A DNA stretch of 64,000 nt, taken from positions 15,885 through 79,884 of the IMG/VR virus record IMGVR_UViG_3300045135_000745; one strand, 5' to 3'. A program made the translations under genes and the position numbers. Positions 8,957 through 39,353 of this stretch are shown here, piece after piece. The first letter of the stretch is position 1, and each line of letters opens with the position of its first letter. This stretch comes from a virus. Below the pieces are notes generated by a model. That model did not search any database, was not told where the DNA came from, and saw nothing but the letters and a program-made list of their open reading frames with translations.

Positions 8957-10696
8957 TTATACCGAACCCACGACTTCTTCGAAGTCCACACCCGTTCTAA
9001 CTGCGACAAAGTTAAGTGTCACGAAGTTAATTGAACGTGCGGGCTTGATGAAGATCGAGCATACGAATTCGTTTCTGTCTATAACTGCCGGGGTGTTGTT
9101 TGTTTCATCTGCAACAACACGGAAGTCGGTGATACCACGTCTACCTTGGATCTCTCTGAGGAAAGGTTCGACAATGTTCGTAAACTCTGCACGAGTGAAT
9201 TCATCGTTGAATTCGAAGAGTACGTTACGAGCCGCAATGGCAATTGCTCTTTCAAGAACCAGGAACAGACGGCGTACGTTAATACGATCGAATGCTGAAG
9301 GTCTTGCCATGTGAGTTTTATCACCGTAGAGCAAGATACCTTGTCCAGGAATATTTGCGATTGGGTTTACGCCATTCCTATAGAGAAGATCTCTTTCTGT
9401 TTTATTTGGGGAATAAAGTGTTTTAGTTACACCCAAATATACACCACGTCTTTGACCCGCTGGGGAATACCAAGCTGCAGTGTTATTGTCTGACGCTGCC
9501 ATAATACCTGCAGTTGAAGATGCTGCTGGGATGCTAATGTACTGGTCGTTGTACTTATCATATACTCTCAGGTAGTTGTTATCCACGAAGAGATAAGAAG
9601 AGTAAGTGAAAGTTTTAGCAGTAGTAATAACATCATTATTAACATCATTCGATGTTACGACGTCTGAACGTGCAGGTGAAGCTACAACAACACAGTCTTT
9701 ACGAGTACCTTGAGCAATAGAAACTAGGTCGTTAACGACTGTGGTTTGAGCTGCTCTAGAACCCATACCTGGAGCGATTAAGAAATCGACTTGGATATTA
9801 TCCTTGTCTTCGAATCTATCGAAACCAGTTGCGTATTCACCTTCATCAAATGCTGCGGAGTTAGCACCGCCTGCTAATGATAAGGTCTTAACTGCTGGTG
9901 TTGCAAGTTGATAATCTTTAGCATCTTCTACATCAGTACCAACGTTTGTATTCCAGTCAGAGTCTGTAAGATCACCAAAACCGGCAAGCCAAACGTAACG
10001 TGATCTGTTATTGATAACGTCCACGATATAGTTAGATGTGCCATCTGCGGATTTAGCATCTGATGCTACCGAAACGAATGGGAATGATTCAAGAATCGTC
10101 CCCTTTGTCCCGGTAAACGCGCCATCTTGGTCAATAACCACAACGTGAGCTTCATCGTTTGATGCGCCTCGGTCTGATGCGTACGTAGATGTAGTAGGCG
10201 CGCCGTCGAAGTTATCTTCGTATGTCCAACCTGTAAATGCTGGATCGTCTGCGCTGTCAACGGCTGTAAGCCATTGTACTTGTAGCGAGTTACCCAGTGT
10301 ACCTGGATATTTAGCGATGAATGTGTGTTCATCGGAATCCAATGCAGCTTGCTGGAAATCAAAAGATTCTTGCTTTTTGACTCTTGCTGCTGAAGCCGCT
10401 CTAGCGTCGTACCCGTTAAGACTTTCGCCCACGCCTTGGGTAGCTTCTCTAACCACGTAGAGTGAATTTGCATATCTTAAGAAATATGCTGCTGAGTGGA
10501 AGTCGATAGAATTTGTTTTGCTTGGGCTACCGAAAGTAGATACAAGACCCGCTTCGTCAGATACTAAAATTGGTTCATCGACTGGACCCCAATTAAAGTT
10601 ACCTACGAAAGCGCCGGTTGTTGAACCAACATTAGGAACAACACCAGTAAGGTCAATCTCTTTGACGGTAATTGCCGGAGATTCTGATACTGCCAT
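8957..10696 (-). CDS. gp18: Tail sheath protein
   Basis: SPAITVKEIDLT, FNWGP, WYSPAGQRRG, SAFDRINVRRLF, IKPARSINFVTLNFVAVRTGVDFEE. Confidence 0.98.
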   Translation of the reverse strand: MAVSESPAITVKEIDLTGVVPNVGSTTGAFVGNFNWGPVDEPILVSDEAGLVSTFGSPSKTNSIDFHSAAYFLRYANSLYVVREATQGVGESLNGYDARAASAARVKKQESFDFQQAALDSDEHTFIAKYPGTLGNSLQVQWLTAVDSADDPAFTGWTYEDNFDGAPTTSTYASDRGASNDEAHVVVIDQDGAFTGTKGTILESFPFVSVASDAKSADGTSNYIVDVINNRSRYVWLAGFGDLTDSDWNTNVGTDVEDAKDYQLATPAVKTLSLAGGANSAAFDEGEYATGFDRFEDKDNIQVDFLIAPGMGSRAAQTTVVNDLVSIAQGTRKDCVVVASPARSDVVTSNDVNNDVITTAKTFTYSSYLFVDNNYLRVYDKYNDQYISIPAASSTAGIMAASDNNTAAWYSPAGQRRGVYLGVTKTLYSPNKTERDLLYRNGVNPIANIPGQGILLYGDKTHMARPSAFDRINVRRLFLVLERAIAIAARNVLFEFNDEFTRAEFTNIVEPFLREIQGRRGITDFRVVADETNNTPAVIDRNEFVCSIFIKPARSINFVTLNFVAVRTGVDFEEVVGSV

Positions 10697-10757
10697 GACT
10701 CTTTCCCTTTGAGTTTGAATGATATGTTTTTCATGATACGATTATATTCATTACTTC

Positions 10758-10765
10758 TATTTATA
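10758..10765 (-). promoter_or_regulatory. Late promoter for gp18-gp19
   Basis: TATAAATA on the minus strand in the intergenic region. Confidence 0.75.
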
Positions 10766-10777
10766 AGAAATTATATT

Positions 10778-12394
10778 TTAGAAATGCTGATGGTCGTAGT
10801 CGATAGCCCAAGGCTTACCTCGGTCTTCTTCTTTCTGTAATTCATTAATTGCATCAGATCCATCATCAATGAATCCGAATGGTACCATATCATTTTCAAT
10901 CTGTGCCATCTTATCCTTGAACATCATTTCTTTTAAATTAATATCTGTCATATCACCAAACATTTCAGTAGTAGCAAAGTAACCAAACATAACTAAATTC
11001 ATTATCAAGTCGTCATGGTTACCATCTGACGCTTCATAGGATTGTCCTTTGGCAATAAAAGTAGAACACTCTAAGATGGTATTAGTATCGTGTATTTGAA
11101 GTTTTTCATTCTCAATAATATCTTTAATGCCAGAACACCCCAGACGCTTTACCTTACGGGTCATTTCAATACCTATACCGTCCGATTTAAGTGCAGATGA
11201 TACATGCATATTTTCATATTCTAATTCGTGATATAAGCCCCGGGTAACTAGCACACCCTGATCATTAGATTCAACAATCACATACGCTTGATTGTAAGAA
11301 GTTGCATACTTATAAATAATATCAGGGAAGAGTATTGGAGAGATAGAATTACATCGATAAACCGCGACTTGTTCAAACGGTCTACACGTTACATCGATCA
11401 CGTTAAAAGTAGAATAATCCTGTCCTCTTCCCTTACTTACATCTACACATACAATATATTCGTGGTCTTTCTGGGTCTCTTTATAGACTAGTAAGTGTCC
11501 GCCTTCAAGGATCTTAATAGGCTCGATTGATTTCATTCTCATAAGAGCTTCTGCGCCAATTAAGGTATCCCCAGTACCGAAAAACGTATTGCCAAATTCC
11601 TGGTCGAATTGAAGCTGTGATGTGTTGTTAATCGTTTCTATTTTCCAAGCTTCATCGCGACCGGGAACATCCCACCAATCCACTCTGAATGGTTTATAAG
11701 CATTGGTCCCCTGTAAAGCACCTTGCCAGATAGTATAGAATTGGTTACCGATACCATTGGCTGTTGAAGTAATAATAACCTTTGTATCTTTACCAGACGA
11801 AACAACGGGATAGGTTGATGTATAGAACTCTGTAGCATTTTCAACGAATGCAAATTCGTCGAGATATAGCAGGTTAACCGATTGGCCACGAATAGAGCTA
11901 CCAGATGTAGCAGCAGCAAAAATCTTAGAGTTATTACTAAACTCAATCGAACCTTTGTTGAGTGCCTTTGTTCCTGGCTGTAAGAAAAACGGTAAGTTTT
12001 CTAGCATCAAGGTAATACGTGAAAGCATTTCCCTCGCAGTTGCGCCTTTGTTTGCTAGAATAGCAATATTCTTTTCCGAATGGAAAATTGCATACCAAAG
12101 CAGATAAGCGACAGAGGAAATAGATTTACCGGACTGGCGACAAGCGAGAACGATAGAGAATCGATTATCATTGAAGTGCTGGAACATCTTCTCTTGATAA
12201 GGATATAGCTTAAAGTTAACTAGACCTTTATCAAGCGAGATAATCTTACAGTAAGTAACTGCAAAATATGCAGGATCGTTCATACACTTTTGGTATTCAA
12301 GGATAGTTTCTTGACTCCATCCTTGAACGATGCCATCACGTTTCACATTCGGATTACCTAAGTAACCCTCATTACCATTTACAATATTATTCAT
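10778..12394 (-). CDS. gp17: Terminase large subunit
   Basis: YLGNPNVKR, Walker A CRQSGKS, Walker B LLYLDEFAF, STANG, nuclease DVSKGRGQDYS and HDDL. Confidence 0.99.
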   Translation of the reverse strand: MNNIVNGNEGYLGNPNVKRDGIVQGWSQETILEYQKCMNDPAYFAVTYCKIISLDKGLVNFKLYPYQEKMFQHFNDNRFSIVLACRQSGKSISSVAYLLWYAIFHSEKNIAILANKGATAREMLSRITLMLENLPFFLQPGTKALNKGSIEFSNNSKIFAAATSGSSIRGQSVNLLYLDEFAFVENATEFYTSTYPVVSSGKDTKVIITSTANGIGNQFYTIWQGALQGTNAYKPFRVDWWDVPGRDEAWKIETINNTSQLQFDQEFGNTFFGTGDTLIGAEALMRMKSIEPIKILEGGHLLVYKETQKDHEYIVCVDVSKGRGQDYSTFNVIDVTCRPFEQVAVYRCNSISPILFPDIIYKYATSYNQAYVIVESNDQGVLVTRGLYHELEYENMHVSSALKSDGIGIEMTRKVKRLGCSGIKDIIENEKLQIHDTNTILECSTFIAKGQSYEASDGNHDDLIMNLVMFGYFATTEMFGDMTDINLKEMMFKDKMAQIENDMVPFGFIDDGSDAINELQKEEDRGKPWAIDYDHQHF

Positions 12395-12758
12395 CTTTTA
12401 ATCGTGGTGTAATATCCACCACGTTATTCTCCACCTGTTTAGCATTTGCATCTTGAAGCATACGCTGTAAATCTGTTGTTGAGCCAATATAAACATTATT
12501 AGTAGTTTGCCCGGCGGGTAACTGGGGTTGTTCCTTAACGTTAATATCTTTATGCTTCTTATTCAGATCCATAAGCTTATCGTTAACATCGGCGACGTTT
12601 TTAATAAGCCCAGACAATACTTCGAATGCACGCGGGTGCTCGCTTTCGCGTGCGACCTCAATCATATCTTCTAGAGCATTTCGACCTTTGTTAATTAGAT
12701 CGAATAAAGTGTCTCTCGAGTATTCATAGTCATTTTTAATTCTATCAGAATCAGACAT
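12387..12758 (-). CDS. gp16: Terminase small subunit (likely start ATG 12758)
   Basis: DYEYSRDTL...ESEHPRAFEV...TTNNVYIGSTTDLQRML. Confidence 0.93.
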   Translation of the reverse strand: MSDSDRIKNDYEYSRDTLFDLINKGRNALEDMIEVARESEHPRAFEVLSGLIKNVADVNDKLMDLNKKHKDINVKEQPQLPAGQTTNNVYIGSTTDLQRMLQDANAKQVENNVVDITPRLKDE

Positions 12759-13605
12759 AATTTGGCCATCCAGATTTATCACTATCACCATCCTCCATAC
12801 TATATATTGACGTGGTAAATCCATAGTCGCTATCGGGTGATGCATCTAATGGATTAGGTTCTACCACAATTCTAGATGAAGGGCTATAAAGGGCAAAGGC
12901 CCCATCAGAGTCAATCGTATCGTGCAGTAAAGTACCATCCGAATCCCGGGCAGCATTCGACGTATAAAGATCCACAATAGATTTTCTAATAATCGCCGTT
13001 TCAGTAATCGGACCGTAGAAGTTAGCCGTCATGGAAAAATCTAAAACGTATTGTATAATACGCCTTTGATCCAAAGACCCCTCATATGCATCCGAGTAAC
13101 TAATGCCATTAAGTGTAATGGGAACATCTTCTTTAATATCACTATAATCGGCAAAAGGCTTAATAGTCAAAGTATATTGTGGTGCAAAGTTCGGAAGGAT
13201 CTGTTCTATAATCTGCAGAGCATCGTCCTGGGTCTTTGCATATACGTTTAACTGGAACCCAATAATATATGGTGTAAATGTGTAAATTTTATTACGAGTA
13301 TTACCACTACCTTTGTTAAGGTTGTTAACTTTTTGCAACTGTCGTTGCGAGTCATACTGATAGGAAGTAATTTCAAAAGACATACGAGGTAACTTAATAG
13401 CTACTTTTGTGTCATTCTGTAGATCTGGATTCTCACGAATACGATCTAAGAAGCTAGTGCTTGGTGCATACGACAGCGGTACACGAGCTTGACTAATAAC
13501 TTTGTTTGTATTATCTGTGCGAACTACGTAGATGTTATTAAAGAGTGAGCCAAACATAGCCACGCTTTTGCGGATTCTTTCGTGATAAAAATGGCTGCCT
13601 AACAT
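12751..13605 (-). CDS. gp15: Tail sheath stabiliser / completion protein
   Basis: HFYHERIRKSVAMFGSLFNNI, VPLSYAP, LPRMSFEI, DDALQIIEQILPNFAP. Confidence 0.95.
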   Translation of the reverse strand: MLGSHFYHERIRKSVAMFGSLFNNIYVVRTDNTNKVISQARVPLSYAPSTSFLDRIRENPDLQNDTKVAIKLPRMSFEITSYQYDSQRQLQKVNNLNKGSGNTRNKIYTFTPYIIGFQLNVYAKTQDDALQIIEQILPNFAPQYTLTIKPFADYSDIKEDVPITLNGISYSDAYEGSLDQRRIIQYVLDFSMTANFYGPITETAIIRKSIVDLYTSNAARDSDGTLLHDTIDSDGAFALYSPSSRIVVEPNPLDASPDSDYGFTTSIYSMEDGDSDKSGWPNYV

Positions 13606-14522
13606 TACTGTGGATCTCCAAACGGATTGCTTTCACTGAAGTCTAAGAAACCCATGTCTGTGTCAGTGGTATCAAAGAAGTCATTCTTTTCGTTTTCTGC
13701 TAATTGATTCACTTCAGACACCGCCGTGGCAGAAGCGATAGAAAGAAGAGGGTCTACAATAGATCCTGATGAATCTTTATCTTCAGTACCGATGATCTGT
13801 CTACCGGTTACAAACGTATGATAGTTACCGTCATCTGCACCCACATGAATAAGGTGCAAGATATTATCTGAATCAGAGAACGCTGCAACTTCGCCTGATA
13901 CGATTGTTCCAGTTGACAGTGTCTGATTGACAGTCTCACCGATCGACCATCCAAACGAAGCGCTATCAAGTGTGACGAGATACTTGTAAGCATAGTCACG
14001 TTCAACCGTATCAATAGCATCTACACCGGTATCAAGATTTTCACCGCTGTACTCAAAGAGTTCACAACGTAACTTATAAGTAGGTAGGTTACTGAGCTGA
14101 TAGAAAGGTTGTTCGTGCTCTACAGCCATAATCTGGAACATAGAATTTGATAGTGGCAGATAAATTACGTCGCCCTCAAGCGGTCTAATTGCCTGAATCT
14201 CGTTGTCGTACCTTGCCACAGTTTGTGACCAGCGCTTGCGAGCTACAATGAAAGTAGCTTGGTCACGAATCTCTACCCCAAACTTAGTGAAAAGATCTCC
14301 TTCACCGTCAAAACCTTCCGTGTTCTCTATGTACATCTCTACTTTATAAGAAGAGTTGAAGCTTGATTGGATATCTTCACCGAGGATTTTATCTTCAGTT
14401 ACTAAATCTCTTGGCAGATAATAAACGTCTTGACCATAGATCTTAAGAGATTCTATGATAATATCTTCGTATAGATTTTGTTCTGATTTAACCTTTTGGC
14501 TAAAGTAGTGGTTAGTTGCCAT
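13605..14522 (-). CDS. gp14: Neck protein
   Basis: EQNLYEDIIIESLKIYGQDVYYLPR, LFTKFGVEIRD, RPLEGDVIYLP, DFSESNPFG. Confidence 0.96.
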   Translation of the reverse strand: MATNHYFSQKVKSEQNLYEDIIIESLKIYGQDVYYLPRDLVTEDKILGEDIQSSFNSSYKVEMYIENTEGFDGEGDLFTKFGVEIRDQATFIVARKRWSQTVARYDNEIQAIRPLEGDVIYLPLSNSMFQIMAVEHEQPFYQLSNLPTYKLRCELFEYSGENLDTGVDAIDTVERDYAYKYLVTLDSASFGWSIGETVNQTLSTGTIVSGEVAAFSDSDNILHLIHVGADDGNYHTFVTGRQIIGTEDKDSSGSIVDPLLSIASATAVSEVNQLAENEKNDFFDTTDTDMGFLDFSESNPFGDPQ

Positions 14523-14526: not shown

Positions 14527-15282
14527 TTATCCTACGAAGAAGTCTGCGGGCATCTCAAAGTCCATGCGAATCTTTTCTCTTAGACGCTCAATCTCTTGTA
14601 GTGCGTCTTCGAAGATCTGTCTACCGTTAAGTGTCACACCACCAGGCATCTGCATTCCTTCAAACTTAATTAGGTTTGCACCCCATTGGTGTTTAATTAA
14701 GGCGGTGGTATATTCTTTTAACCACATATCATTCCATACTTTAGAGTGTGCACTAGAATCTACAGTCTTAAATGCTTCATATACAATATAATCTCCCGCC
14801 TCTACGTCTTTATCATTAAAGTCGCCATGAAGATATAATCGGTTCATTTTACGGGAATAGGTAGTCTGTGGTTCTCCATTAAGCTTCATATCCAGAAGTG
14901 AAAGGTATTGGTTAAGCTGCTCATAGTACGCCAAGTCACCCGAAAAGTTTTGCATATCTGCAATATCATTTAACATCATCTGATATTTAATATCAAAGAA
15001 GTTAAATGAAGTATTAAAACTCGATGAAATACGGAACATCCTACTTACGTAGATCACATCATTTGGAACAGTGACATATTCATTCGATACGTCACTGTCA
15101 CCTACAAGCTGTGATACATATGTTCTATATGTTGCATCACTATGAAACTCTTGCCAGTACTGTAGGGCTTCATCGACACGGTCCTCTAGTTGATCAATAT
15201 CCACATTGATCTCGATAACCGGATCACCAAGTCTTCTTAAACAGTAATCAATGAGACCTTGTCTGCTAGATGGATTCGCCAT
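14527..15282 (-). CDS. gp13: Neck protein
   Basis: LIDYCLRRLGDPVIEINVD, WLKEYTTALIKHQWGANLIKF, PGGVTLNG. Confidence 0.97.
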   Translation of the reverse strand: MANPSSRQGLIDYCLRRLGDPVIEINVDIDQLEDRVDEALQYWQEFHSDATYRTYVSQLVGDSDVSNEYVTVPNDVIYVSRMFRISSSFNTSFNFFDIKYQMMLNDIADMQNFSGDLAYYEQLNQYLSLLDMKLNGEPQTTYSRKMNRLYLHGDFNDKDVEAGDYIVYEAFKTVDSSAHSKVWNDMWLKEYTTALIKHQWGANLIKFEGMQMPGGVTLNGRQIFEDALQEIERLREKIRMDFEMPADFFVG

Positions 15283-20693: not shown

Positions 20694-20965
20694 TAGAAGT
20701 TGCCTCCGTTAAATGTAGTATTCGTATTTGTTAATTCAACTTTGGATTCAAAGTTTTGTGTTCCATCATTATATACTAGTAACGCGCCATCGGTAACGCC
20801 TGTGATATCGATACCAGCAAGAGAACCGAGTTCAATATCTCCAGAGGTGACTCTTCGCACAATTCTAACCGGCGTACCCACGGTAACTTTTTTAATGGTA
20901 GTTTGACTACCGGTAACAGCTGTACGACTAACACTGCTTTGACCTGTAGTAATTCTAATTGCCAT
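20693..20965 (-). CDS. Small virion structural protein (90 aa)
   Basis: DGALLVYND motif and C-terminal NGGNF; coupled to neighbours. Confidence 0.65.
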   Translation of the reverse strand: MAIRITTGQSSVSRTAVTGSQTTIKKVTVGTPVRIVRRVTSGDIELGSLAGIDITGVTDGALLVYNDGTQNFESKVELTNTNTTFNGGNF

Positions 20966-27275: not shown

Positions 27276-27897
27276 TAATCTCCTCGAATGTCAATACACA
27301 TGGGTCATAATCTACTTCAGGCTGATACTTCTTGGATTGAATGTATTTTTTATCGAAGACAAAATTATTTACACTAAAATCTTCATGTACCAGATATCGG
27401 TCGATCCCCACATATTTACGCATGAAATAATCACGGAAACCTGACTCGTTAAAGTGTGTCCAGTATTCTTGCATAGCTTCATTTGAAGCGTCCCAAGTCA
27501 TTACTGAGCTGTTAATACGTACATCGTAGTTAGCTAGTCGATCGTATAACTTACCTTGCTTCCAGTGTGAATGCACAAGGGTAAGTTTTTCCCAATCACG
27601 TGGATCATCGTGAATGAGCGGATCCTTTAAAATCTTCACATCTAAGTCAAAGAAATATGTTTTACCTTTAAACGGCATCTCCAGATCAAATAAACGTAGT
27701 TTGTTCCACACGCCTTTTAAAGTTGGCCGCCCCAGAGGCGGTATAATGTTTACCTCAGGGTCAATATCTGTTGGATCGTCGGTATAACAGAAGAATTGGA
27801 ATTCTGCTTTTGTTAATCTTTTAATATCATGATAAAGCTTGTTTACGAAGTCTGCACTATACTTCGGGCCAAACTTCACACAGATCACATTATACAT
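27250..27897 (-). CDS. Putative GT-A glycosyltransferase
   Basis: NVICVKFGPKYSADFVNKLY, FFCYTDDP, WNKLRLF, FFDLDV (DxD), INSSVMTW, GIDRYL. Confidence 0.82.
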   Translation of the reverse strand: MYNVICVKFGPKYSADFVNKLYHDIKRLTKAEFQFFCYTDDPTDIDPEVNIIPPLGRPTLKGVWNKLRLFDLEMPFKGKTYFFDLDVKILKDPLIHDDPRDWEKLTLVHSHWKQGKLYDRLANYDVRINSSVMTWDASNEAMQEYWTHFNESGFRDYFMRKYVGIDRYLVHEDFSVNNFVFDKKYIQSKKYQPEVDYDPCVLTFEEINVGLDDLK

Positions 27898-27899
27898 TA

Positions 27900-28538
27900 T
27901 TATTCCCTTGCAGAGATATAGATCTTAAATAATTCCCATAAAGATTTTGATTTTCTAACTGATAACTTAAGCTGTTTATCTTTAGATTTACCGATAATAG
28001 GATCTTCAAGAATAGCAATCTTAGCATTAAATACAAAATCATCATCTCGATCTTTGGAATCTATAATTGATAAAAGATCTTTAGCATTAATCTCAGAGGA
28101 TTTTGGACCGGCTGTAACGAATTTATCCTGAAGCTTTTTTCTAAGTTCAGAAAATTCTTCTTGAACTTCTTCAAACTTTTTCAGTTTTTCTTGCTCTGCA
28201 TATTGGTCTAAGTCACGATATCTTTTTTCTGCATAAGAATCGATATCTTCGTAGGCTTTTTGAATTTTAGATTGTTCAGCGGCCCAACGACGATCGATTT
28301 CATCATTAATCATTTTTTCAAATACATCAGACTCAACCTTTAAAGCTGCTTGAGTATTTTTCTCAATCTCTTCTAAGGTTAATTCCTGTAATAGATCGTT
28401 AAAATCGTTTGATGTGAAATCGACTTCTAAAATATAAGGAATTACTTTATCTTCTTCCTGATAAAGTAATTCAATAATCATATTATTCGGTAGATCTATA
28501 AATTTTGCGGAAATAATTCTTTCGCTAAAAATAGCCAT
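27900..28538 (-). CDS. Hypothetical coiled-coil protein heading the modification operon
   Basis: 212-aa ORF, E/K-rich central helix, 2 nt from the next gene. Confidence 0.7.
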   Translation of the reverse strand: MAIFSERIISAKFIDLPNNMIIELLYQEEDKVIPYILEVDFTSNDFNDLLQELTLEEIEKNTQAALKVESDVFEKMINDEIDRRWAAEQSKIQKAYEDIDSYAEKRYRDLDQYAEQEKLKKFEEVQEEFSELRKKLQDKFVTAGPKSSEINAKDLLSIIDSKDRDDDFVFNAKIAILEDPIIGKSKDKQLKLSVRKSKSLWELFKIYISARE

Positions 28539-29490: not shown

Positions 29491-30108
29491 TTAACTTCCT
29501 GCACCGTACAATGTTTTAAGAGCTGTTCCGCTACTGTTATATATTACTAGCGCTACCTCGTCTTTTAAGTTTGCGCGTGCAACGCCATCATTAGCAATTG
29601 ATACCGCACCACCTGAAACTGTAAAATTAGTAGAGCTAAAGCTAGCAATACCTTTATTCGCAGTTGTTGCATCTTCTCCAGATATTACACCCGATGTAAT
29701 ATCTATACCTTCACCGGCACTAAAGTGTGCTCTTACCTCAGAAGCGCTTGGACCAGTATATGTAATTATCCCAGTTGCTGAACTATATGATAATGATCCA
29801 TCACCTCCAGCATCTGTTACACTGATATGTGCTCTTACCTCAGAAGCGCTTGGACCAGTATATGTAATTATCCCAGTTGCTGAACTATATGATAATGATC
29901 CATCACCTCCAGCATCTGTTACTGAGATTTTACTTCTAACATCCAAATCGGAATCGATTAATGCATATACAGAATTAATAGCGCCCACAATATCAGAATC
30001 TACTGTGGTATTTAATGCTGTTAAATCTCCAACCTCTAATGATAGTTGATTAAACTTATTAACCATTTCATTAAAGTTATCGGAGATATTAAGATGTTGT
30101 TTCGCCAT
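29491..30108 (-). CDS. Fibre / fibritin-like virion protein
   Basis: N-terminal DNFNEMVNKFN...VGDLTALNT...DIVGAINS coiled anchor, then fibre repeats. Confidence 0.7.
   Translation of the reverse strand: MAKQHLNISDNFNEMVNKFNQLSLEVGDLTALNTTVDSDIVGAINSVYALIDSDLDVRSKISVTDAGGDGSLSYSSATGIITYTGPSASEVRAHISVTDAGGDGSLSYSSATGIITYTGPSASEVRAHFSAGEGIDITSGVISGEDATTANKGIASFSSTNFTVSGGAVSIANDGVARANLKDEVALVIYNSSGTALKTLYGAGS
29726..29922 (-). repeat. Perfect 95-nt direct repeat, period 102 nt (34 aa)
   Basis: 29726-29820 is identical to 29828-29922; encodes VTDAGGDGSLSYSSATGIITYTGPSASEVRAH twice. Confidence 0.95.
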
Positions 30109-30311
30109 TATAGTTTCTCTATGATCTGGGTTAGCATGGATTTGATATCATTAACATCTTGTTTCAACTGTTCAATTTCCTGCTTCTGCCTGTTACGATT
30201 CTCTTTTGCTTTCCTAGCCATATTAATTTCAGAGGTATTTATATTAATAATTGCACCGGTTTTCGGATCTCTTCCAAATCCCGGCGCGTTATCAGCTTTT
30301 AGTATTTTCAT
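30108..30311 (-). CDS. Small conserved hypothetical protein (67 aa)
   Basis: RDPKTGAIININ...LKQDVNDIKSML family that follows VrlC-like genes in T4-like phages. Confidence 0.75.
   Translation of the reverse strand: MKILKADNAPGFGRDPKTGAIININTSEINMARKAKENRNRQKQEIEQLKQDVNDIKSMLTQIIEKL
30236..30243 (-). promoter_or_regulatory. Candidate internal late promoter for fibre genes plus the modification operon
   Basis: TATAAATA on the minus strand inside the 67-aa gene. Confidence 0.45.
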
Positions 30312-33300
30312 TATACTGCCAATGCGATTGTTCTAATATCCTTAAACACTGGCACCTTCGCTTGATTTTCTGAAACCATAACAATTTTTATTTGTAATTG
30401 ATTGAAAGCATCCAGTGTACCAGTATTACCTCCAATCAGATATTCATATTCTCTGAATACTTCCGGATTTTCATCACTGATTAGTCCTGACGTAGAAGTA
30501 ATTGCTGTCCATGAAAGGTCGGAGATATTATCATCACCGGAAGCTACTCTATAATACACGTCGAATGAAGCTGCATTAGGCTTATTAGCAGTAATGAATA
30601 ACTTCATACCAACAGCATCTTGCGCTAGAGTAATAACTTTACTTATATGCTTAGCAACTGATGAACCACCCTTCGGATCTGTTTCTGCTACGTAGTTAAT
30701 TGGTACGTTAAATCCTGCAGCAGGTGAAGCTGCCGGCTTATCAATAATATTATTAATAGCAAGAACCGAAGCTCTTTGCATATCAATAACTGGTGAAACT
30801 TTTTTATCTGTTGTCTGAAGACCTATTTTCAGATTAAAGCTTTTTGCGCCGCTGAGATATGTAGTTTCATTATTACCATTTGCGATCATCTGAGGAGCAT
30901 CGAATGCAATATTTTTACCAATAGTCATAGGCGTATAAGTTGAAGCTTGCTGATAAGCAGTTTCTGTACCAGCAATCGATTGTGCCGTAGTGGTTTTAAT
31001 CGATGCAGTAATAGATGTTTCAGTAGGTCTTAAAGTTGCAAGACTGATATTAGCAATATCCATCAAAATGTTTTGGTCTGCTAAGATAGCTGATCCGCCA
31101 CCAATTTCTGCAGAAGTAGCATCAGAATCTGCTTCAAATTGATAACCAGTTGCATCTACTACTGTAATAGTTCTAGCGCCATTAATGGAAGAAGCACTAA
31201 TGCCAGCCATGTCTGTTGCGCCTGAGATATTAACCGTATCGCCAACTGCAAATCCATGATTAGGTTGATACACCGAGATTGTTGCATCAGCAGAATCAAC
31301 TGATAATGGATCTTCAGTTAATAGTTTCTGTGGAACAGAAGCGTTGTTAAGAACAACCTCACCGTAACTGGTATTGAATGCTGCAGTGTAGATATGTATT
31401 TTCATATCTTCCCACTGAGTAGCTGTCCAAGTTGAGTTATTCTGAGATTTAAACAAGGAGCCTAAGAATGGCTGCTTAACAACTTTCTTATCTGTTGTAC
31501 CTAATACATAATCACCAACTTTAGAAATAAAGACTCTATACGTCGGAACAGAAGAAATAAGAACGAAGCAGTATTCCTTATTAGGATTCAAATAAACCGG
31601 TTCTTCGAATTCGAATGTAGTTGCTACGCTCGCATCATCCGATACTGTAATTTCAGATGGGAATTTAAATACTGTTGAACCTCCGATAACCTCAGAAGTC
31701 GGATACCCGTTTTCAATAGCACGAATTTGACCCCAAACTGGAGCAGTGCCAGTATCTTTTTCTGCAAAATACACATCAACTTTTGTAGCAAATACGCCAT
31801 TAGTATTAGAAATAAAGAATGATTGTGCTAATGGATCCGATCTATTGTGGGCCAGTAATCCATTCGCAAAATATGTATTGTTACCATCTAAGATAAAGTT
31901 ATAGACTGTCTGTTCTGGCTCATCAGAGAATACCTCTAATGATTCAACCAGCATCCAAGAACCGTCTTCCATAAGGATTTCATCACCAACCTGAAGATCT
32001 TTAACATCTAAGAAACCCATTTCAGGGAACTGATACGCAAAAGTTTCAGCAGAGTATGATCTCCAGCCATTCTTGGTAAAGAGCGGGTGTTCGGGGGTCA
32101 TGAATGGACCATTACCATTAATACCAATGAAATCTCTTCCATCTAATGCTGGATGGTCAAATTCAAGAACAGTATTGATAGCGCCATCTTGACCCAGAAG
32201 TTTTTCACCGATCTCAACATCTTCAATCTTTTTCTTAGTGCCATCAGCCATAGTGATAAGAGTCCCGGCAATAAAGCAAGAACGTTCAATAGGAGGCGCT
32301 GGCGGTCTTGGTGGTGGCGGGGGCGGAGTAACCACTGGCGGCGGTGGCGGATTAGTTGTAGTTCCAATAACCCTACTAGACGAACTACTAGTAGTTCTTT
32401 GGCTACTAACAACCTCCAATACTCTAGTGCTTAAAACATCTCTTTGTCTTGTCTGTAGCGTACCAGCAGCAGTAAAAACTTGTCTTCCATAGGAGGTAGA
32501 AAATTCGATATTATTAAGATCAGTTATGTCAATTAGTTCAAAGTCTCTGCTACCAGTTCTAAATCTAAAGTTAGCTGTCGACGGAATAAAGAATGAACCT
32601 TCTATATTGCCATTAGCATCAGCAATTAAAGATGAAGAACCTTCTGGATGGCCAAGTGCAGTATTTTCAGTATTACCGAATGTAGTCGTATCATCAGAAG
32701 CACGAGTAAAGGTTTCTGCCCTACACCAATCTGATACATCAATACCGTCAAAGAATGGGAATACTTCAGTATCAGGTCTAAACCCTTGGCCTCTGAAATA
32801 TACTTTTCTCGATCTCATGAATGGGATAGAAACTCCTTGGACTAATCTATCACCGACGATCTCTGTGATAGTAGTTTCACCTACAATTCTATTATTACCG
32901 GTGGTGGTAGAAGACCATGAGTTTCGAATAGTTTCTGTACCACCAGTACCGAAATCTCCAGCAGTATTATTAACAGAAGTGCTAGAACCACCGCTAGAAC
33001 TTAATGTGATGGTGTTTGTAACCGACCCAACTTGCAATTGATCTAGCGGAGTACCTCCCCAATTCCACTGATGGGCATTCCAAAGGTTTGCCCCGGAAGT
33101 ATCTAATTGAGTTTGATTTACAATCGCATCTGGTTGATACTCTTGTTCAATCCAGTTATCGCTCGCTGGTGAAAGTGCAATATTACCGTCGAATCTAATA
33201 GTCCAATATGGAAGAACATTTTCTGTGCCACTGGCCTGCGATTGATTGATATATGACTCGTGGGCATATTTAAGGTAAATATTATCACCCTTTTTAATCA

Positions 33301-35956
33301 CGCCAGAGTTCTCGCTATTATCAGAATCATAAAGAAGATCTATAGCATCTGTATTACCACGCGGACGCATAGCTTTATTTTCTGGATCGATTGCAGCAGC
33401 GTAATCTAGATCATCTGTTGCAGAAAAGAAGTGATTAGAAAAGTTATCTACGAAAAATCCAGATTTGGTTCGATTATTACCATCAGAATCCAATACCGCT
33501 AAATTAGCCGTATCAAGCTCGAGCAAACTTAATGAGGTGACTTCTTCTAAAGAATTAAGTCTTTTTTCTAACAAACCGATATCAGCCATAGTATAATGCT
33601 TATGTTCGATTTGTTTCGAAACTAGATCTTTATTATCTAGTACATAAGGATTAAACTGAATTCTATATAATTCAAGCGAGTTATCTGGATGCGGAACGAA
33701 TTCAGGCGTTAAAGATTCATCGCCATTTATAACAAAAAGATTTGCTTTAGTATCAATTACTAGCTTAGAATACACCTTATTATAATAAGAAATATCAGCC
33801 TGAATAGCATCATTTGGCTGAGGAAGCTCGTGAACGATAGCTCCTGATCCGAAAGTACCAGAAGAATTTACTACCGGTCTAAAGTCAAGTACGTTTCTAA
33901 GAGGGATTGTAGATCCTACGGCATTAATATGGGATGGGATATCAGTATAATCTACTTGACCGGTATATGAGTTAACTGAGAAGAAATCACCAGAAACCCC
34001 ATGTGAGAAATAATCGTATTTAACAACAACATCGTAGGTTGGAACAGATTGGCCTGACTTAAGAACAAGACGACCTAAACCATAATAGTTATCTCTCTGT
34101 CCATTATCGAGAATAAATCTAGATCTCACACTATTACCGCTGACGCTATCTCTTGTTACCGATGTAAATGAATATACGTCTGGCTTAGATAAATTAGCGA
34201 AGATTGTGCCATTACCATCAGAATCCCAATCACCTGTACCGATAGTGTCTGTCTGGTCTTCATTTAAGGTTTTAGAACGGATTGAACCATTAGCTTTATT
34301 GACGTATGCCATAACTTCAATACTAGAAGCACCGCCAAGTCCTGAAATAGTAGCGTTTGTAGTACCAACGCCAGTAATAGTAGCACCAGTTACTACCGCA
34401 CCACTATCGGCAGAAATAACCCAGTCGTTTGTATTTGCAAACGTTTCGCCGGATGCTGAAAGGGTTAATGTTGCACTACCTGCAGTAACTGACGCCGTGA
34501 ATCGTCTTTGCGTTGAAAGAGAGATATCAGTCATATTAGACGGACGAATTCTAGGAAGTGCGAATAATAACGAATTAGTTTTAGGATCCTTTAGAACCGC
34601 TTGACCTAATTCTAAAACCAAGTTCATAAAGTCTGTACCGCTTGTGCCGATACTTCTTACGCTTCTAAAGTTCTGCCCAGAGTTCATAGAAATTTGAAAC
34701 AGGTGAAGTCTATGGTAACCTGAGTTATCTTCATCAACTGCTCTAACACGAGCCGTACCAATAGTACTTCCCCCATAATCTACAGCATTACGAAGATTGA
34801 CGGTTGAGAAGTCATTAATATTCGGAAGGCCTTCACTGGTTGAACCATCTACAAGAACATAGTTACCTAAAGTAAATGCAGCTACTTCGTTATTAACTGT
34901 TGTGGTGGTTCTAGGTTTATCAACAGTAATAGTTCTAGAACTATGGGTTTCTACTCTATAACCATCAATATAAGCTAAACCTGGTTGTACGGAAATATCA
35001 ATTTTGCTAGTATCATCGGTATTGTCAGAGAAGTTTAATTTAAAGGGTTTTACAATATAATCACCAGACTCTTCAGAAGTTCTGGTTGCCAGCATTTCTG
35101 CGATTATATTATAGTTTTCTTCTTGGGCCGGTTTTTTAACCTCTAAAATATCATCACCATTAAGTACCCCAACGAAAACAAAATTATCCGCTGAGTCTAT
35201 CGTGGAATCTAAAGTCAATGTTAAATTGATTTTAAATCTATCAGCGCCGGGAGAAGAGGTGTTAGGTAATGGACCTGAGTTATCGTATAATGTGTTATCG
35301 TCGTTTGCGGTAACAATAGATTCGGTTACTTTAAATCCAAAATTATCTGTATTAGTATCTGAGTTTTCGTATTTCTTAGCAAGGATAGTTTGTTTTGGGG
35401 AAAATACGAATCTACCATCTACGTAGTATACCCCTTCATTATTGGTAAGGAATACGCCTTCCCCTAAAGCTGGGTTTGCTGTAGTATTGGTAGTCTGTAC
35501 TGTTAAAGTAACAGCACCATTTGTAATATTTTCACCTGGAGTAAATCTTAAATTAGATCCATTTGCGTTAATATATCTTACGTAAATTGTTCCAGGGTCA
35601 GATGCTGTGGCTTCCTCAACGTGAGTAACAACAGCGGTCACGCCACTTGTAGAACCGGTAAACGTGGTATTTAAAATAGTAGATGTATCAGCCGGGAGAG
35701 CATTAATTGTCTGATTTAATTTTGCAAATTGGGAACCTGATGCAATAAATCCACCAGACTGAACAATAGCACCTTCTTTAAAGATGTTATCCCCGAACCG
35801 AGTAATCTCTTTTTGAATAATAGTTTGTAGCTGTGTAAGCTCTCGTGCTTGAACCGCTCTACCATTATTAAATAAGATTCTATGAAACCCAGCACTGTCA
35901 GAGAAATCATCTCTGTATGTTTCTAGGAAAGTATTCTGAATTACTTGATCTACCAT
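30311..35956 (-). CDS. Large VrlC/DUF4815-like virion structural protein with internal Hint domain
   Basis: YRDDF...HRILF..GRAVQARELTQLQ, PGADRFKI, RTSEESGDYIV, YTMADIG.LEKR, KSGFFVDNF, DPLAQSF, GSLFKSQN.STW. Confidence 0.88.
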   Translation of the reverse strand: MVDQVIQNTFLETYRDDFSDSAGFHRILFNNGRAVQARELTQLQTIIQKEITRFGDNIFKEGAIVQSGGFIASGSQFAKLNQTINALPADTSTILNTTFTGSTSGVTAVVTHVEEATASDPGTIYVRYINANGSNLRFTPGENITNGAVTLTVQTTNTTANPALGEGVFLTNNEGVYYVDGRFVFSPKQTILAKKYENSDTNTDNFGFKVTESIVTANDDNTLYDNSGPLPNTSSPGADRFKINLTLTLDSTIDSADNFVFVGVLNGDDILEVKKPAQEENYNIIAEMLATRTSEESGDYIVKPFKLNFSDNTDDTSKIDISVQPGLAYIDGYRVETHSSRTITVDKPRTTTTVNNEVAAFTLGNYVLVDGSTSEGLPNINDFSTVNLRNAVDYGGSTIGTARVRAVDEDNSGYHRLHLFQISMNSGQNFRSVRSIGTSGTDFMNLVLELGQAVLKDPKTNSLLFALPRIRPSNMTDISLSTQRRFTASVTAGSATLTLSASGETFANTNDWVISADSGAVVTGATITGVGTTNATISGLGGASSIEVMAYVNKANGSIRSKTLNEDQTDTIGTGDWDSDGNGTIFANLSKPDVYSFTSVTRDSVSGNSVRSRFILDNGQRDNYYGLGRLVLKSGQSVPTYDVVVKYDYFSHGVSGDFFSVNSYTGQVDYTDIPSHINAVGSTIPLRNVLDFRPVVNSSGTFGSGAIVHELPQPNDAIQADISYYNKVYSKLVIDTKANLFVINGDESLTPEFVPHPDNSLELYRIQFNPYVLDNKDLVSKQIEHKHYTMADIGLLEKRLNSLEEVTSLSLLELDTANLAVLDSDGNNRTKSGFFVDNFSNHFFSATDDLDYAAAIDPENKAMRPRGNTDAIDLLYDSDNSENSGVIKKGDNIYLKYAHESYINQSQASGTENVLPYWTIRFDGNIALSPASDNWIEQEYQPDAIVNQTQLDTSGANLWNAHQWNWGGTPLDQLQVGSVTNTITLSSSGGSSTSVNNTAGDFGTGGTETIRNSWSSTTTGNNRIVGETTITEIVGDRLVQGVSIPFMRSRKVYFRGQGFRPDTEVFPFFDGIDVSDWCRAETFTRASDDTTTFGNTENTALGHPEGSSSLIADANGNIEGSFFIPSTANFRFRTGSRDFELIDITDLNNIEFSTSYGRQVFTAAGTLQTRQRDVLSTRVLEVVSSQRTTSSSSSRVIGTTTNPPPPPVVTPPPPPPRPPAPPIERSCFIAGTLITMADGTKKKIEDVEIGEKLLGQDGAINTVLEFDHPALDGRDFIGINGNGPFMTPEHPLFTKNGWRSYSAETFAYQFPEMGFLDVKDLQVGDEILMEDGSWMLVESLEVFSDEPEQTVYNFILDGNNTYFANGLLAHNRSDPLAQSFFISNTNGVFATKVDVYFAEKDTGTAPVWGQIRAIENGYPTSEVIGGSTVFKFPSEITVSDDASVATTFEFEEPVYLNPNKEYCFVLISSVPTYRVFISKVGDYVLGTTDKKVVKQPFLGSLFKSQNNSTWTATQWEDMKIHIYTAAFNTSYGEVVLNNASVPQKLLTEDPLSVDSADATISVYQPNHGFAVGDTVNISGATDMAGISASSINGARTITVVDATGYQFEADSDATSAEIGGGSAILADQNILMDIANISLATLRPTETSITASIKTTTAQSIAGTETAYQQASTYTPMTIGKNIAFDAPQMIANGNNETTYLSGAKSFNLKIGLQTTDKKVSPVIDMQRASVLAINNIIDKPAASPAAGFNVPINYVAETDPKGGSSVAKHISKVITLAQDAVGMKLFITANKPNAASFDVYYRVASGDDNISDLSWTAITSTSGLISDENPEVFREYEYLIGGNTGTLDAFNQLQIKIVMVSENQAKVPVFKDIRTIALAV
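31844..32278 (-). other. Hint (intein-like) domain, 145 aa, no homing endonuclease
   Basis: CFIAGTLITMADG...IEDVEIGE, block B TPEHP, VYNF...NNTYFANGLLAHN; next residue is Arg. Confidence 0.92.
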
Positions 35957-35972: not shown

Positions 35973-37316
35973 TTATAATTGTATGATAACTTTCAGATCT
36001 TCAGTTTGTGCTGATGATCTTTCAATTGCGGCTCTGTTATCGATGTAAAATATTTCACCTTTGAACTTATTTATATCACCAGAATTGGCTGTAGTTCCGA
36101 TAACACCCGAACCAGAGCCATTAGTTTCTGAAACTGCTTCACCAGCTTGGAACGCTGTGAATCCGGTATCAACTGTTTGGTGATAATAAATGGTATCCGA
36201 ATCAAATTTATCCACATAAGCTAATGCACCGGATGTACCACCTTCAATAATTTTATCAGCGGTAAATCCAGTAGCTACAGAAGAAAGAACCATATAATTT
36301 AGAGCTGAACCGGTTTCGGTTGTAAGCTTGGCATCAGCTGAGTCCAGAGGATTACGAATAATACCAACTTGTCTAAAGTCTTGACCGATAATAAAGTCTT
36401 CATTTTCTGCACCGGATGGCTTAGAGTTAAACATAATTGCTGTTGACTTAAGATCTAAAATAGGATTAGCGCCAAAGCCGGAAGGAGTAGAAAGATTTAC
36501 TCTTGCCGCCGCGCCTGTGCCACCACCGCCAGTGAATACCACATTTGCTTGATTGTAATCATGACCTGGTCGATATAGTAAACTAGCAGCAGAATCTTTC
36601 ATTTCTACCTTAACAACTGCACCGCCGCTAATAGTGGCAATTGCTTGAGCGCTGTCGCCGTCACCGACAATAGAAACAGATGGGGTAGAAGTATAACCTG
36701 TACCACCAGAAGTTACTGTAATATTTGCGATTGTTCCAAATACTGCTGCATTCTGGATACCGTATTGTTCTTGATCAACAGCAGGATCAGTTGGTCCAGC
36801 CGAATCAACTAAACGTACCGGCATATAGTTTGCTGAAAGGTAATTATTTGCAAGTGAAGCACCGACTGTATAAAGAAATTTCCAAACATAACCATCGGCA
36901 GTTTTAAATGGAGTGGTAAGAACACCAGATGGCTTAACTGTAGACTGTACGGCTGCACCGGTAGAATTCTTACCTTGTTCCAGACAAATATAAACTTGGT
37001 TTTCATCCGTAATAACATAATAGGCATTAGTAGGATAAGCCACTTGATTGTTATTCCATCCACTATAAATTGTACCAGAAGTCCAGTTATATCTTGGTAC
37101 CACGTATGAAACATCTTCAGCTCTTTTTACAGATTGTAAATTTAATCTAAAGTTTCTTTCTTCAAGAGCACTATTAACAGGATTTGGCGCGGCATCCGCT
37201 GAATCCCATTGTTGAGATCTACCGATACCAATATAATAATGTTGAGCAGAATCTGCAACATCATTTAGGATTTCTTGAATAAATCTTCTTTTGAAGCTAT
37301 CTGTGATAATTGCCAT
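35973..37316 (-). CDS. gp8: Baseplate wedge subunit
   Basis: AIITDSFK, YIGIGRSQ.W, VVPRYNWTSG, DGYVWKFLY, DFRQVGII.NP, GEIFYIDNR...EDLKVIIQL. Confidence 0.93.
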   Translation of the reverse strand: MAIITDSFKRRFIQEILNDVADSAQHYYIGIGRSQQWDSADAAPNPVNSALEERNFRLNLQSVKRAEDVSYVVPRYNWTSGTIYSGWNNNQVAYPTNAYYVITDENQVYICLEQGKNSTGAAVQSTVKPSGVLTTPFKTADGYVWKFLYTVGASLANNYLSANYMPVRLVDSAGPTDPAVDQEQYGIQNAAVFGTIANITVTSGGTGYTSTPSVSIVGDGDSAQAIATISGGAVVKVEMKDSAASLLYRPGHDYNQANVVFTGGGGTGAAARVNLSTPSGFGANPILDLKSTAIMFNSKPSGAENEDFIIGQDFRQVGIIRNPLDSADAKLTTETGSALNYMVLSSVATGFTADKIIEGGTSGALAYVDKFDSDTIYYHQTVDTGFTAFQAGEAVSETNGSGSGVIGTTANSGDINKFKGEIFYIDNRAAIERSSAQTEDLKVIIQL

Positions 37317-37328
37317 ATTTTTATCCTA

Positions 37329-38330: not shown

Positions 38331-38354
38331 GATTAATTCCTGTTGAGTTTAATC

Positions 38355-38362
38355 TATTTATA
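38355..38362 (-). promoter_or_regulatory. Late promoter
   Basis: TATAAATA on the minus strand about 25 nt upstream of 38330. Confidence 0.75.
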
Positions 38363-38369
38363 TAAAAAG

Positions 38370-39353
38370 TTAGGGCAAATCTAAATACTGAAAGGTATTA
38401 TTAGTAGAATCCAAGTAGTCGAAATTGGACTGATCCATCGTTTCGACTGAGTTAGAGAAGTCGACTGATACGATAATACCATCAGAATCCTGATCGAATC
38501 TTGAGGAGTTTTCATCTTGGAATTCAATGAAGCTATTATACTGATCATCAAACTGTGCCAGTGTGACAGATCCACCAAGATCTGATATAGATTTATATGG
38601 ATCAATTCTTTCAGAATAAAGATCTGAATCGGCATCATCGGCAATAATAAGTGATAGAGGTTCGAATGTCAACGAAGCAATGGATGCGGTATTTTCGAAC
38701 GAAACCACGCCAGCATTTGAATCCAAAATTGAAATCGGCATATCACCGATACCAAGATTAACTGTACCTTCTACAACAATATCGCCAGCAAGATAAAAAC
38801 CTGACGGATGAACGAATCTTTTAAATAGGGTTTCCCATTTAGCTAAAGAAACCCCGGATCGAATCAAAATAGAATGAATCTGATATCTTTTATCATCCTG
38901 AATATATTTCAATGAGTCTGGGCCAAGTCTAGATTCATTAACAATAAACATATTGTTTTTAGGATATACAATATCTACTTCTTCGTCGAAAAATCCTCGG
39001 AAGAATAGTTTTGCAGAATTAGCGCTGCCTTTTTCTCTATAAAAATTGGCAAATAGTTTGGCAATCAATCTTGGGTTAATATTAAAGTCAGTTGAGTTTA
39101 ATCCGAGGCCGATCTCATCAAAGATCTTATCTAACTGGGAAAGTAAAGTAGTATTTAGATCTCTGGCTTGATATAATGAATTTAGTAAGTATGTAAACCC
39201 TTGGTCATCTTTTTCCATATAGTCATAATATGATTCCAGAAATTCTACAAGATTTGGATACTCCGTAGGAAAGTGTTCGGGTAAAACTTCTCTTACCTTA
39301 CTCGTATGGAAATTAACTGGAACGCGATTTAAATGACTTATATTATGAGACAT
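38370..39353 (-). CDS. gp7: Compact baseplate wedge initiator (gp7-like)
   Basis: LPEHF..EYP.LVEFLESYYDYME, FYREKGS..S.KLFFR.FF.EEV, FVHPSGF; follows gp6. Confidence 0.75.
   Translation of the reverse strand: MSHNISHLNRVPVNFHTSKVREVLPEHFPTEYPNLVEFLESYYDYMEKDDQGFTYLLNSLYQARDLNTTLLSQLDKIFDEIGLGLNSTDFNINPRLIAKLFANFYREKGSANSAKLFFRGFFDEEVDIVYPKNNMFIVNESRLGPDSLKYIQDDKRYQIHSILIRSGVSLAKWETLFKRFVHPSGFYLAGDIVVEGTVNLGIGDMPISILDSNAGVVSFENTASIASLTFEPLSLIIADDADSDLYSERIDPYKSISDLGGSVTLAQFDDQYNSFIEFQDENSSRFDQDSDGIIVSVDFSNSVETMDQSNFDYLDSTNNTFQYLDLP

Follow-up and report, generated by a model that had tools for sequence, protein, structure and literature searches.

An Asp-Ser-[Asp/Ala] loop motif under selection in virion proteins of uncultured marine T4-like phages, and its possible role as a modification sequon

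Do the virion proteins of uncultured marine phages carry a short code for covalent modification, and which genes might write it? The question is raised by a 64,000-nucleotide stretch of IMG/VR virus record IMGVR_UViG_3300045135_000745 (positions 15,885 to 79,884; “the window”, whose numbering is used below unless a contig or phage is named), part of a 79.9-kb viral contig from a T4-like myophage without a close cultured relative. Its tail sheath is 49% identical to that of Phage C48C1 and about 45% identical to those of the Pelagibacter phages HTVC008M and Mosig, and its baseplate wedge protein gp8 is at most 35% identical to those of isolates. An original prediction, made from the sequence alone, had proposed that the tripeptide D-S-[D/A] (DS[DA] below) is enriched in outer virion proteins, absent from buried ones, and marks serines modified by glycosyltransferases encoded at 21432-28538. 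The gene names on which it relied agree with PHROG annotation, namely the sheath, TerL/TerS, gp15, gp14, gp13, fibre-region proteins, the 1881-residue VrlC-like protein, gp8, gp9/10-like, gp7-like, gp6, gp25, gp5/hub parts, gp48, gp53, head genes, and UvsY. We find that the motif is real, selected, and specific to one large clade of T4-like (pelagimyophage-like) marine phages that are uncultured, and that it has the formal properties of a sequon.

Across all 59 open reading frames (ORFs) of the window, DS[DA] occurs 37 times against 14.9 expected from per-protein shuffles (z 5.9). Twelve virion proteins totalling 5474 amino acids (aa) hold 35 of these occurrences where 6.3 would be expected, which matches both the earlier hand counts, protein by protein, and the earlier overall estimate of about 35 in roughly 5500 aa against about 6. 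These proteins are listed here with the capsid loop discussed further below:

4069..4140, minus strand: variable loop of the major capsid protein (residues 128-151), with DSS, DSN, and DSS, which are all of that protein’s DS dipeptides
8957..10696, minus strand: tail sheath (gp18-like; PHROG 23, E 5e-116), 3 DS[DA] at residues 120, 147, and 245
12751..13605, minus strand: gp15-like sheath stabiliser (PHROG 227), 4 DSD within residues 221-274
13605..14522, minus strand: gp14-like neck protein (PHROG 460), 2 DS[DA]
14527..15282, minus strand: gp13-like neck protein (PHROG 211), 1 DSD
18383-19036, 19110-20693, and 20968-21324, minus strand: fibre-region proteins (PHROG tail-fibre/wedge-like matches), 1, 2, and 2 DS[DA], respectively
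29491..30108, minus strand: small fibre-region protein, 2 DSD
30311..35956, minus strand: VrlC-like virion protein of 1881 aa (PHROG 358), 7 DS[DA]
35973..37316, minus strand: gp8-like baseplate wedge protein (PHROG 438; PF09215 in homologues), 7 DS[DA]
37329-38330, minus strand: gp9/10-like connector (PHROG match), 2 DS[DA]
38370-39353, minus strand: gp7-like wedge protein (PHROG match), 2 DS[DA]

The two remaining occurrences fall in TerS (gp16) and UvsY, one each, the only two that the original prediction had found in non-virion proteins. In the other 45 ORFs the count is zero, and these include the inner proteins for which absence had been claimed: DS[DA] is missing from the window’s tube, gp3, gp6, gp25, gp53, gp48, gp54, hub, and gp5 parts, as well as from its tape measure, portal, scaffold, protease, and major capsid protein. 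A 90-aa ORF amid the three fibre-region genes (20693-20965) likewise has none. As had also been noted, gp6 lacks even the DS dipeptide (0 vs 3.6 expected in 611 aa), although this total absence is not conserved in relatives, whose gp6 has 0-4 DS. For the non-target class overall, 2 DS[DA] stand against about 8.6 expected (Poisson estimate, P ~0.009). The surplus is specific to the third residue: D or A follows 44% of all window DS dipeptides where composition predicts about 15%, while DS followed by any other residue is depleted (47 vs 84 expected from per-protein shuffles, z -4.3). The absence of DSE (0 vs 5.6 expected, and also 0 in each of the loci L001-L014) and of DSR (0 vs 3.5) is stronger than this general depletion.

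A tripeptide chosen post hoc in D/S-rich proteins might nevertheless owe its excess to chance or composition, and the window’s own statistics leave some room for this. DSD ranks first among all 8000 tripeptides (24 vs 7.1; Poisson P 5e-7, ~0.004 after Bonferroni correction), DSA by itself is not significant (13 vs 7.7), and DS[AD] ranks first among 76,000 X-Y-[ZW] patterns with P 9e-7. TV[NT] is a near-equal second (39 vs 16.3, P 1.3e-6), and SG is the most enriched dipeptide of the window (156 vs 110), both excesses probably reflecting fibre beta-structure composition. With a corrected P of ~0.07 for DS[AD], TV[NT] nearly as strong, and tripeptides within internal repeats of other phages reaching far lower P values, the window alone is not conclusive. 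The motif sites of the window lie outside internal repeats, however, and the codons used at them are diverse, which places the signal at the protein level and rules out a DNA-level origin.

Relatives of the window settle the matter of chance. Homologues of gp8 (n=120, 51-95% identity) carry a mean of 4.7 DS[DA] each, compared to ~0.4 expected. An IMG/VR scan with an alignment as query added 80 loci (a single-sequence query with the gp8 of locus L026 returned only itself), and in ~95 loci with gp8 33-78% identical to the window’s, gp8 and the VrlC-like, gp7-like, and gp9-like proteins jointly hold about 4-9 times the expected number, so that the enrichment seen in the window’s shuffle test is replicated well beyond it. 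Orthologues of the gp9/10-like and gp7-like proteins have 13 vs 1.8 and 46 vs 5.7, respectively, and in L026 (gp8 37% identical) DSA ranks second and DSD third among all tripeptides by enrichment. Essentially no DS[DA] was found in the gp6, gp25, hub, and 28559-type proteins of relatives, and almost none in gp5; the DS dipeptide itself is low in the hub (5 vs 18.9) and in the 28559-type protein (3 vs 14.2). For G011, a 152-kb relative (gp8 54% identical, 83% complete) in which protein classes were fixed beforehand by map position, the outer baseplate and fibres contain 53 DS[DA] against 9.8 expected (P 5e-22), neck, sheath, and head proteins 10 against 4.5, inner baseplate and hub 0 against 2.6, and the non-structural arms 7 against 12.7. 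Together, the ~95 loci, reaching down to 33% gp8 identity, and G011 exclude chance, and we regard a compositional origin as extremely improbable. Motif density varies within the clade: the gp8 homologues P0029, P0041, and P0065 are low in the motif, and in locus L017 (IMGVR_UViG_3300040751_002148) gp8 has a single site and the gp7-like and 29491-like proteins none, while the VrlC-like protein keeps 6.

What, then, does the motif look like in detail? Residue preferences were derived from 320 target-class proteins, whose sequences are related and therefore not independent. After D-S, the observed-to-expected ratio (O/E) is 6.9 for D, 5.8 for A, 2.4 for S, 1.7 for N, 1.6 for G, and 0.9 for T, and falls to 0.1-0.7 for hydrophobic (such as I, L, V, and F), basic, Q, M, and P residues. 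Threonine does not replace serine (DT[DA] O/E 0.5 in the same proteins; in the window, DTD 4 vs 7.5 and DTA 3 vs 8.7), and neither E-S nor N-S shows, with any third residue in this set, an enrichment comparable to that of D-S. At position -1, W, Y, L, and A are preferred while D, E, and P are avoided, and Gly is favoured 2.6-fold at position +3. These preferences yield a fuller form of the motif, in which a hydrophobic or aromatic residue precedes D and S, the third residue is D or A (S, N, or G being less common), and Gly frequently comes next. At one gp8 column DSS and DSA alternate, which suggests that D-S-S may be a weaker form.

In an AlphaFold2 (AF2) model of gp8 (mean pLDDT 87), all seven sites (residues 22, 38, 171, 221, 241, 325, and 372) lie in loops or two-residue turns right after a strand or helix, a placement that rests on the secondary structure of the model and agrees with the original expectation of loops. 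The motif occupies 25 columns among 121 gp8 sequences and 46 columns among 81 sequences of the wider clade; at site 325, the exact tripeptide is present in 25% of homologues, yet 83% have a DS[DA] at most four residues away. Judged from these alignments, the motif slides within loops, and among gp8 loop tripeptides those that match the motif are the more conserved (0.42, against 0.28 for the rest; P 0.017). The sites in the sheath, gp15, and gp14 fall in lineage-specific insertions or extensions: those of the sheath are all in the variable middle, between conserved N-terminal (1-90) and C-terminal (321-561) segments, and those of the gp15-like protein in a C-terminal extension past the conserved domain (1-221). 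Taken together, the specificity for Asp and Ser, the loop location, the sliding, and the under-representation in non-target proteins amount to sequon-like behaviour.

Outside the clade, this pattern is largely absent. Orthologues from HTVC008M (13 vs 14.2 over two regions) and from cyanophage S-SSM5 (5 vs 7.0) show no enrichment, and Mosig has 6 vs 10.9 over 30 proteins, with 0 vs 1.2 in a 1245-aa fibre protein and 1 vs 2.2 for the four target classes; in these three phages, the orthologues of the 1881-aa protein carry the VrlC annotation. In Phage C48C1, DS[DA] is missing from gp8, the VrlC-like protein, and the giant protein; a fibre protein (5 vs 0.8) and the sheath (2 vs 0.55) have more than expected, and a repeat-rich connector has some. 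The gp8 alignment indicates that outgroups have equivalent loops with other polar residues, such that the window’s DGDSA corresponds to DGTGA or DGSSG and its DSD to VDT, NST, DSV, or NAT. An unbiased tripeptide scan of Mosig gave no alternative sequon candidate, its top tripeptides LSG and TVT looking like ordinary fibre composition.

These outgroup loops bear on a reading without any covalent modification, in which the motif would be a clade-specific tight turn (Asx-/ST-type) or a Ca2+/Mg2+ site where beta-strands end in beta-rich tail proteins. The 2.6-fold excess of Gly at +3, the hydrophobic residue at -1, and the location just behind a strand or helix would suit a turn. Asp-rich loops are typical cation sites, and the DSDGNGT at residue 578 of the VrlC-like protein fits DxDxDG. 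The original prediction had itself named calcium-binding loops as an outcome that would speak against a sequon; tested as D-x-[DN]-x-[DN]-G starting from the motif Asp, only this 1 of the 37 window sites fits, and DSA supplies a single carboxylate. In addition, HTVC008M, Mosig, C48C1, and S-SSM5 share the marine setting and their loops do without the motif, the motif slides rather than holding a fixed position, and a turn would leave unexplained why Thr, Glu, and Asn are excluded and why non-target proteins have so few DS[DA], so that we consider a purely structural or metal-binding role rather unlikely. A docking site for a virion component or decoration protein, or a feature of charge, hydration, or protease resistance in seawater, would also be non-enzymatic and would suit a motif that is exposed, acidic, and limited to certain virion proteins. 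We rate this as very unlikely, since a sliding three-residue site on a dozen unrelated folds makes a poor docking site and selection on charge would accept Glu and Thr.

If the serine is modified, which genes might be responsible? The block to which the original prediction assigned the modification, embedded among the fibre genes, encodes the following:

21432-22445, minus strand: radical S-adenosylmethionine (SAM) protein with N-terminal twitch/SPASM domain (NF033640 at 138.2 bits, below the cut-off of 170: related, not a member)
22432-23592, minus strand: radical SAM protein with N-terminal twitch/SPASM domain (NF033640 member, 308.6 bits)
23558-23998 and 23940-24377, minus strand: stand-alone twitch-like Cys-rich paralogues (Pfam/NCBIfam, sequence)
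24349-25149, minus strand: radical SAM core without auxiliary domain (Pfam/NCBIfam; NF033640 at 39.9 bits, not a member)
25109..25795, minus strand: putative GT-A glycosyltransferase with DID, paralogue of 27250-27897 (invariant DxD in family alignment A3)
25783..26655, minus strand: GT8-like glycosyltransferase with DFD (PF01501 in many homologues at 57-80% identity)
26652..27275, minus strand: methyltransferase-like protein (no Pfam match; sole basis a GxGxG-type segment, VVGGWYG)
27250..27897, minus strand: retaining-type glycosyltransferase-like protein of predicted GT-A fold with DLD (AF2 model, Foldseek, PHROG 1962, Atlas lead)
27900..28538, minus strand: acidic coiled-coil-like small protein (family hidden Markov model (HMM); weak PHROG 4697)

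By its predicted content, this block is not simply a glycosyltransferase operon. Glycosyltransferase-like genes are indeed present, as the PF01501 matches of 25783-26655 homologues and the GT-A fold of 27250-27897 indicate, whereas half of the enzymes invoked by the original prediction are radical SAM or twitch proteins rather than glycosyltransferases. All three radical SAM proteins have CxxxCxxC, and the two twitch-like proteins, of ~145 aa each, share the segments PDGQV.PCCYLAN and C.KYC; homologues of both were found in G011 and none in Mosig (tblastn, E 1e-3). The 25783-26655 protein of the window itself has no Pfam match at E 0.01, and its D114-F115-D116 is invariant in 18 aligned homologues. 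For 27250-27897, the AF2 model (pLDDT 71, predicted template-modelling score 0.75) has as best Foldseek matches the GT6 enzyme BoGT6a and the GT8 enzyme LgtC (E 4e-8, template-modelling score ~0.55), and 13 sequences of the family that it forms with 25109-25795 all have D84 and D86; it is thus predicted to fold as a retaining GT-A-like enzyme. In 28 loci, among them those of the outgroups Mosig and C48C1, the 27900-28538 protein is kept beside fibre genes; it is probably a fibre chaperone rather than an enzyme. Five ORFs of the block have no Pfam or NCBIfam match, and PHROGs gave only two weak ones (phrog_1962, E 8.6e-5, for 27250-27897; phrog_4697, E 0.0075, for 27900-28538). PDB sequence searches with 27250-27897 and 22432-23592 returned nothing useful, a DNA-level search of the block against isolated phages gave no match, and no oligosaccharyltransferase-type gene was seen.

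On this basis, we favour a reading in which an enzyme in the infected cell would recognise D-S-[D/A] and covalently modify its serine, the motif being the sequon and proteins that need to stay unmodified avoiding it. That this enzyme exists and is encoded by the phage is a tentative view, to which we give slightly less than an even chance. The writer would probably be phage-encoded, with candidates among the 21432-28538 genes: the three GT-A/GT8-like transferases, the methyltransferase-like protein, and the three radical SAM enzymes. Candidate chemistries would be O-glycosylation or radical-SAM chemistry on Ser. The sequon part of the original prediction therefore fares better than its assignment to glycosyltransferases: Asp/Ser specificity, loops, sliding, and scarcity elsewhere speak for the former, and the distribution of the genes speaks against the latter.

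Several genomes inform this distribution. The cassette is syntenic in close relatives, conserved at up to 91% identity, and in the deep relative L018/L033 (gp8 47% identical) the same fibre gene has GT8-like, GT-A-like, and N-terminal-twitch radical SAM genes next to it. HTVC008M and S-SSM5 have neither cassette nor motif, as predicted for phages without these enzymes. The only enzymes found in G000 and G011 and missing from Mosig are the N-terminal-twitch radical SAM and twitch-only proteins; the other genes so distributed are a MazG-like one and a primase-like one, the latter with a weak match (E 0.0025) that falls short of the Pfam cut-off. The NF033640 profile matches G000, G005, G001, and G011, the four largest clade contigs examined, and weakly G008 (31 bits); it finds nothing in Mosig and S-SSM5, only 12 bits (E 0.003) in HTVC008M, and 24 bits in C48C1. 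Within this gene set, only the N-terminal-twitch radical SAM genes appear to follow the motif, a suggestive co-occurrence. One could imagine that these enzymes act directly on the D-S-[D/A] serine of virion proteins, yielding for instance an aldehyde or a cross-link, and that the glycosyltransferases build on this product or act unrelatedly; so specific a version is, in our estimate, quite unlikely.

A number of observations weigh against a phage-encoded writer within this cassette, or against the motif being a mark at all. Mosig, like S-SSM5 a complete genome, has GT8-like (37% identity) and GT-A-like (HMM E 2e-28) homologues in the same position, along with homologues of the methyltransferase-like and small adjacent proteins, and no motif, so that the transferases do not predict the motif; its cassette also includes a sugar aminotransferase, a carbamoyltransferase, an epimerase, and three MoaA-like radical SAM genes. 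Locus L017 retains the GT-A-like, methyltransferase-like, and GT8-like genes and has lost most gp8 and gp7-like sites. Given the relatedness of the contigs, one ancestral gain could account for the radical SAM co-occurrence. Searches of five further clade contigs (38-57 kb) found nothing for PF01501 and, for NF033640, nothing beyond the 31 bits in G008, which lie below the cut-off; these negatives are uninformative, the contigs being only 21-27% complete. The window-only statistic is, as seen above, borderline after full multiple-testing correction, and the window’s major capsid protein lacks DS[DA] though exposed, which makes the split into outer and buried proteins approximate; in G011, the matching variable region of the capsid reads DSD, DSA, and DSA in a gapped alignment, and the capsid may thus be among the target proteins of some relatives. 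Finally, such cassettes have been interpreted in print as host O-chain modification, and the virion motif is not mentioned in the portion of that article consulted (PMC7029224).

Much of this would be expected if the motif were a true sequon whose writer lies outside 21432-28538, in another part of the phage genome or among the enzymes of the host, with the cassette remodelling the host envelope or making a sugar. Homologous transferases without the motif in Mosig, cassette content that differs among clade members (the G011 radical SAM genes are 27 kb from gp8), and the published O-chain interpretation (PMC7029224) all point this way. That the N-terminal-twitch radical SAM and twitch-only proteins are the only enzymes shared by G000 and G011 and missing from Mosig points the other way, as does the distribution of one alternative writer, an Asp/Asn beta-hydroxylase-like gene (PF05118) upstream. 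This gene was rejected as a candidate because it has homologues in Mosig and hence does not follow the motif; its family is described as core to pelagimyophages (PMC7029224). We consider a writer outside the cassette unlikely.

Other gene arrangements were observed in the course of these comparisons. An ORF containing “YIDAD” after the fibre genes of L108, L021, and L047 was considered as a GT-A enzyme and found unsupported, having no Pfam match, an hhalign probability of 3-7% with the alignments of the GT8-like and GT-A-like families, and an empty PDB profile search. At a distance from its fibre genes, C48C1 carries a small cassette (98839-101350; L125:8840-11351), with a carbamoyltransferase, a weak N-terminal twitch ORF (24 bits), and a GT-A-like glycosyltransferase. 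In HTVC008M (L016:9956-12829) and Mosig (L037:39650-44735), arrays of four to five 2-oxoglutarate-Fe(II)/phytanoyl-CoA dioxygenase genes sit between fibre and neck genes together with a ferrochelatase and, in Mosig, also a heme oxygenase, a different set of possible protein-modifying enzymes. The G011 capsid gene appears interrupted (L120, contig positions 110764-112720): its N-terminal ORF of 236 aa is 66% identical over 238 residues to the window capsid (blastp), and the match ends near residue 225 of the window protein in a pairwise MAFFT alignment. VrlC-like genes are split in L018, L019, and L084, as well as in L108 (11403-17730), where an ORF of 256 aa that encodes a fatty-acid desaturase domain (PF00487, E 4e-13) lies between pieces of 1331 and 523 aa.

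In eukaryotic viruses and a few phages, sequons direct the modification of virion surfaces, and we know of no short code of this kind described for ocean-abundant T4-like myophages. If the favoured reading of a phage-written sequon is right, tails and fibres would be coated with a phage-specified modification, which would matter for how these phages recognise their hosts, withstand proteases and grazers, and persist as particles in seawater. Modified sites would be predictable from sequence across hundreds of metagenomic genomes, and the glycosyltransferase/radical SAM cassettes of pelagimyophage host recognition clusters, as well as the uncharacterised NF033640 family, would gain a first substrate hypothesis. 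Even without any modification, a strict Asp-Ser loop motif spread over a dozen unrelated folds in one clade would be an unusual case of proteome-wide convergent selection.

How does this system compare with known ones? The closest in genomic architecture are the pelagimyophage host recognition clusters, in which VrlC and tail-fibre genes are interleaved with GT8-type glycosyltransferases and radical SAM cassettes, and whose transferases Zaragoza-Solas et al. 2020 assign to host O-chain modification (PMC7029224). The window cassette has this architecture; the cultured members HTVC008M and Mosig lack the motif.

For the motif itself, the original prediction had drawn an analogy to Bacteroidota general O-glycosylation, which acts in the periplasm (PMC8729774) on D-(S/T)-(A/I/L/V/M/T), with the third position extended to S/G/F/C, and whose sequon is avoided by proteins meant to stay unmodified (PMC8729774, PMC8550257). 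The phage motif similarly has three residues with a leading Asp and an acceptor Ser in second place, DSA fits the Bacteroidota sequon, and the lack of the motif in phage proteins expected to stay unmodified is a useful parallel. The analogy does not carry further: Bacteroidota accept Ser or Thr whereas the phage motif does not use Thr (DT[DA] O/E 0.5), and their third residue is aliphatic or small and never Asp, whereas the phage motif is most enriched for Asp (6.9), depleted of I, L, V, and M (0.1-0.7), and not enriched for T (0.9). Tailed-phage virion proteins moreover fold and assemble in the cytoplasm, unlike the targets of the periplasmic system.

For the radical SAM proteins, precedents may be found among maturases that act on short repeated motifs. 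Anaerobic sulfatase-maturating enzymes oxidise Ser or Cys and prefer Ser over Thr. The title of a report on a His-Xaa-Ser system names a radical SAM enzyme as the maturase of an HxS-repeat effector. Like both, the window encodes SPASM/twitch radical SAM proteins that would address a specific residue in a short sequence context; unlike theirs, the putative targets are large folded virion proteins rather than peptides or sulfatases. A literature search on what NF033640 enzymes do returned no paper.

Mycobacteriophages, lastly, have glycosyltransferase genes beside structural genes, proposed to decorate exposed virion proteins. To our knowledge, their O-glycosylation concerns Ser/Thr-rich C-terminal tails of capsid and tube subunits, without a three-residue sequon. 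The window shares the position of its glycosyltransferase genes beside structural genes with these phages and differs from them in that its sites are loop motifs dispersed over tail, neck, and baseplate proteins, and in that radical SAM genes accompany the transferases.

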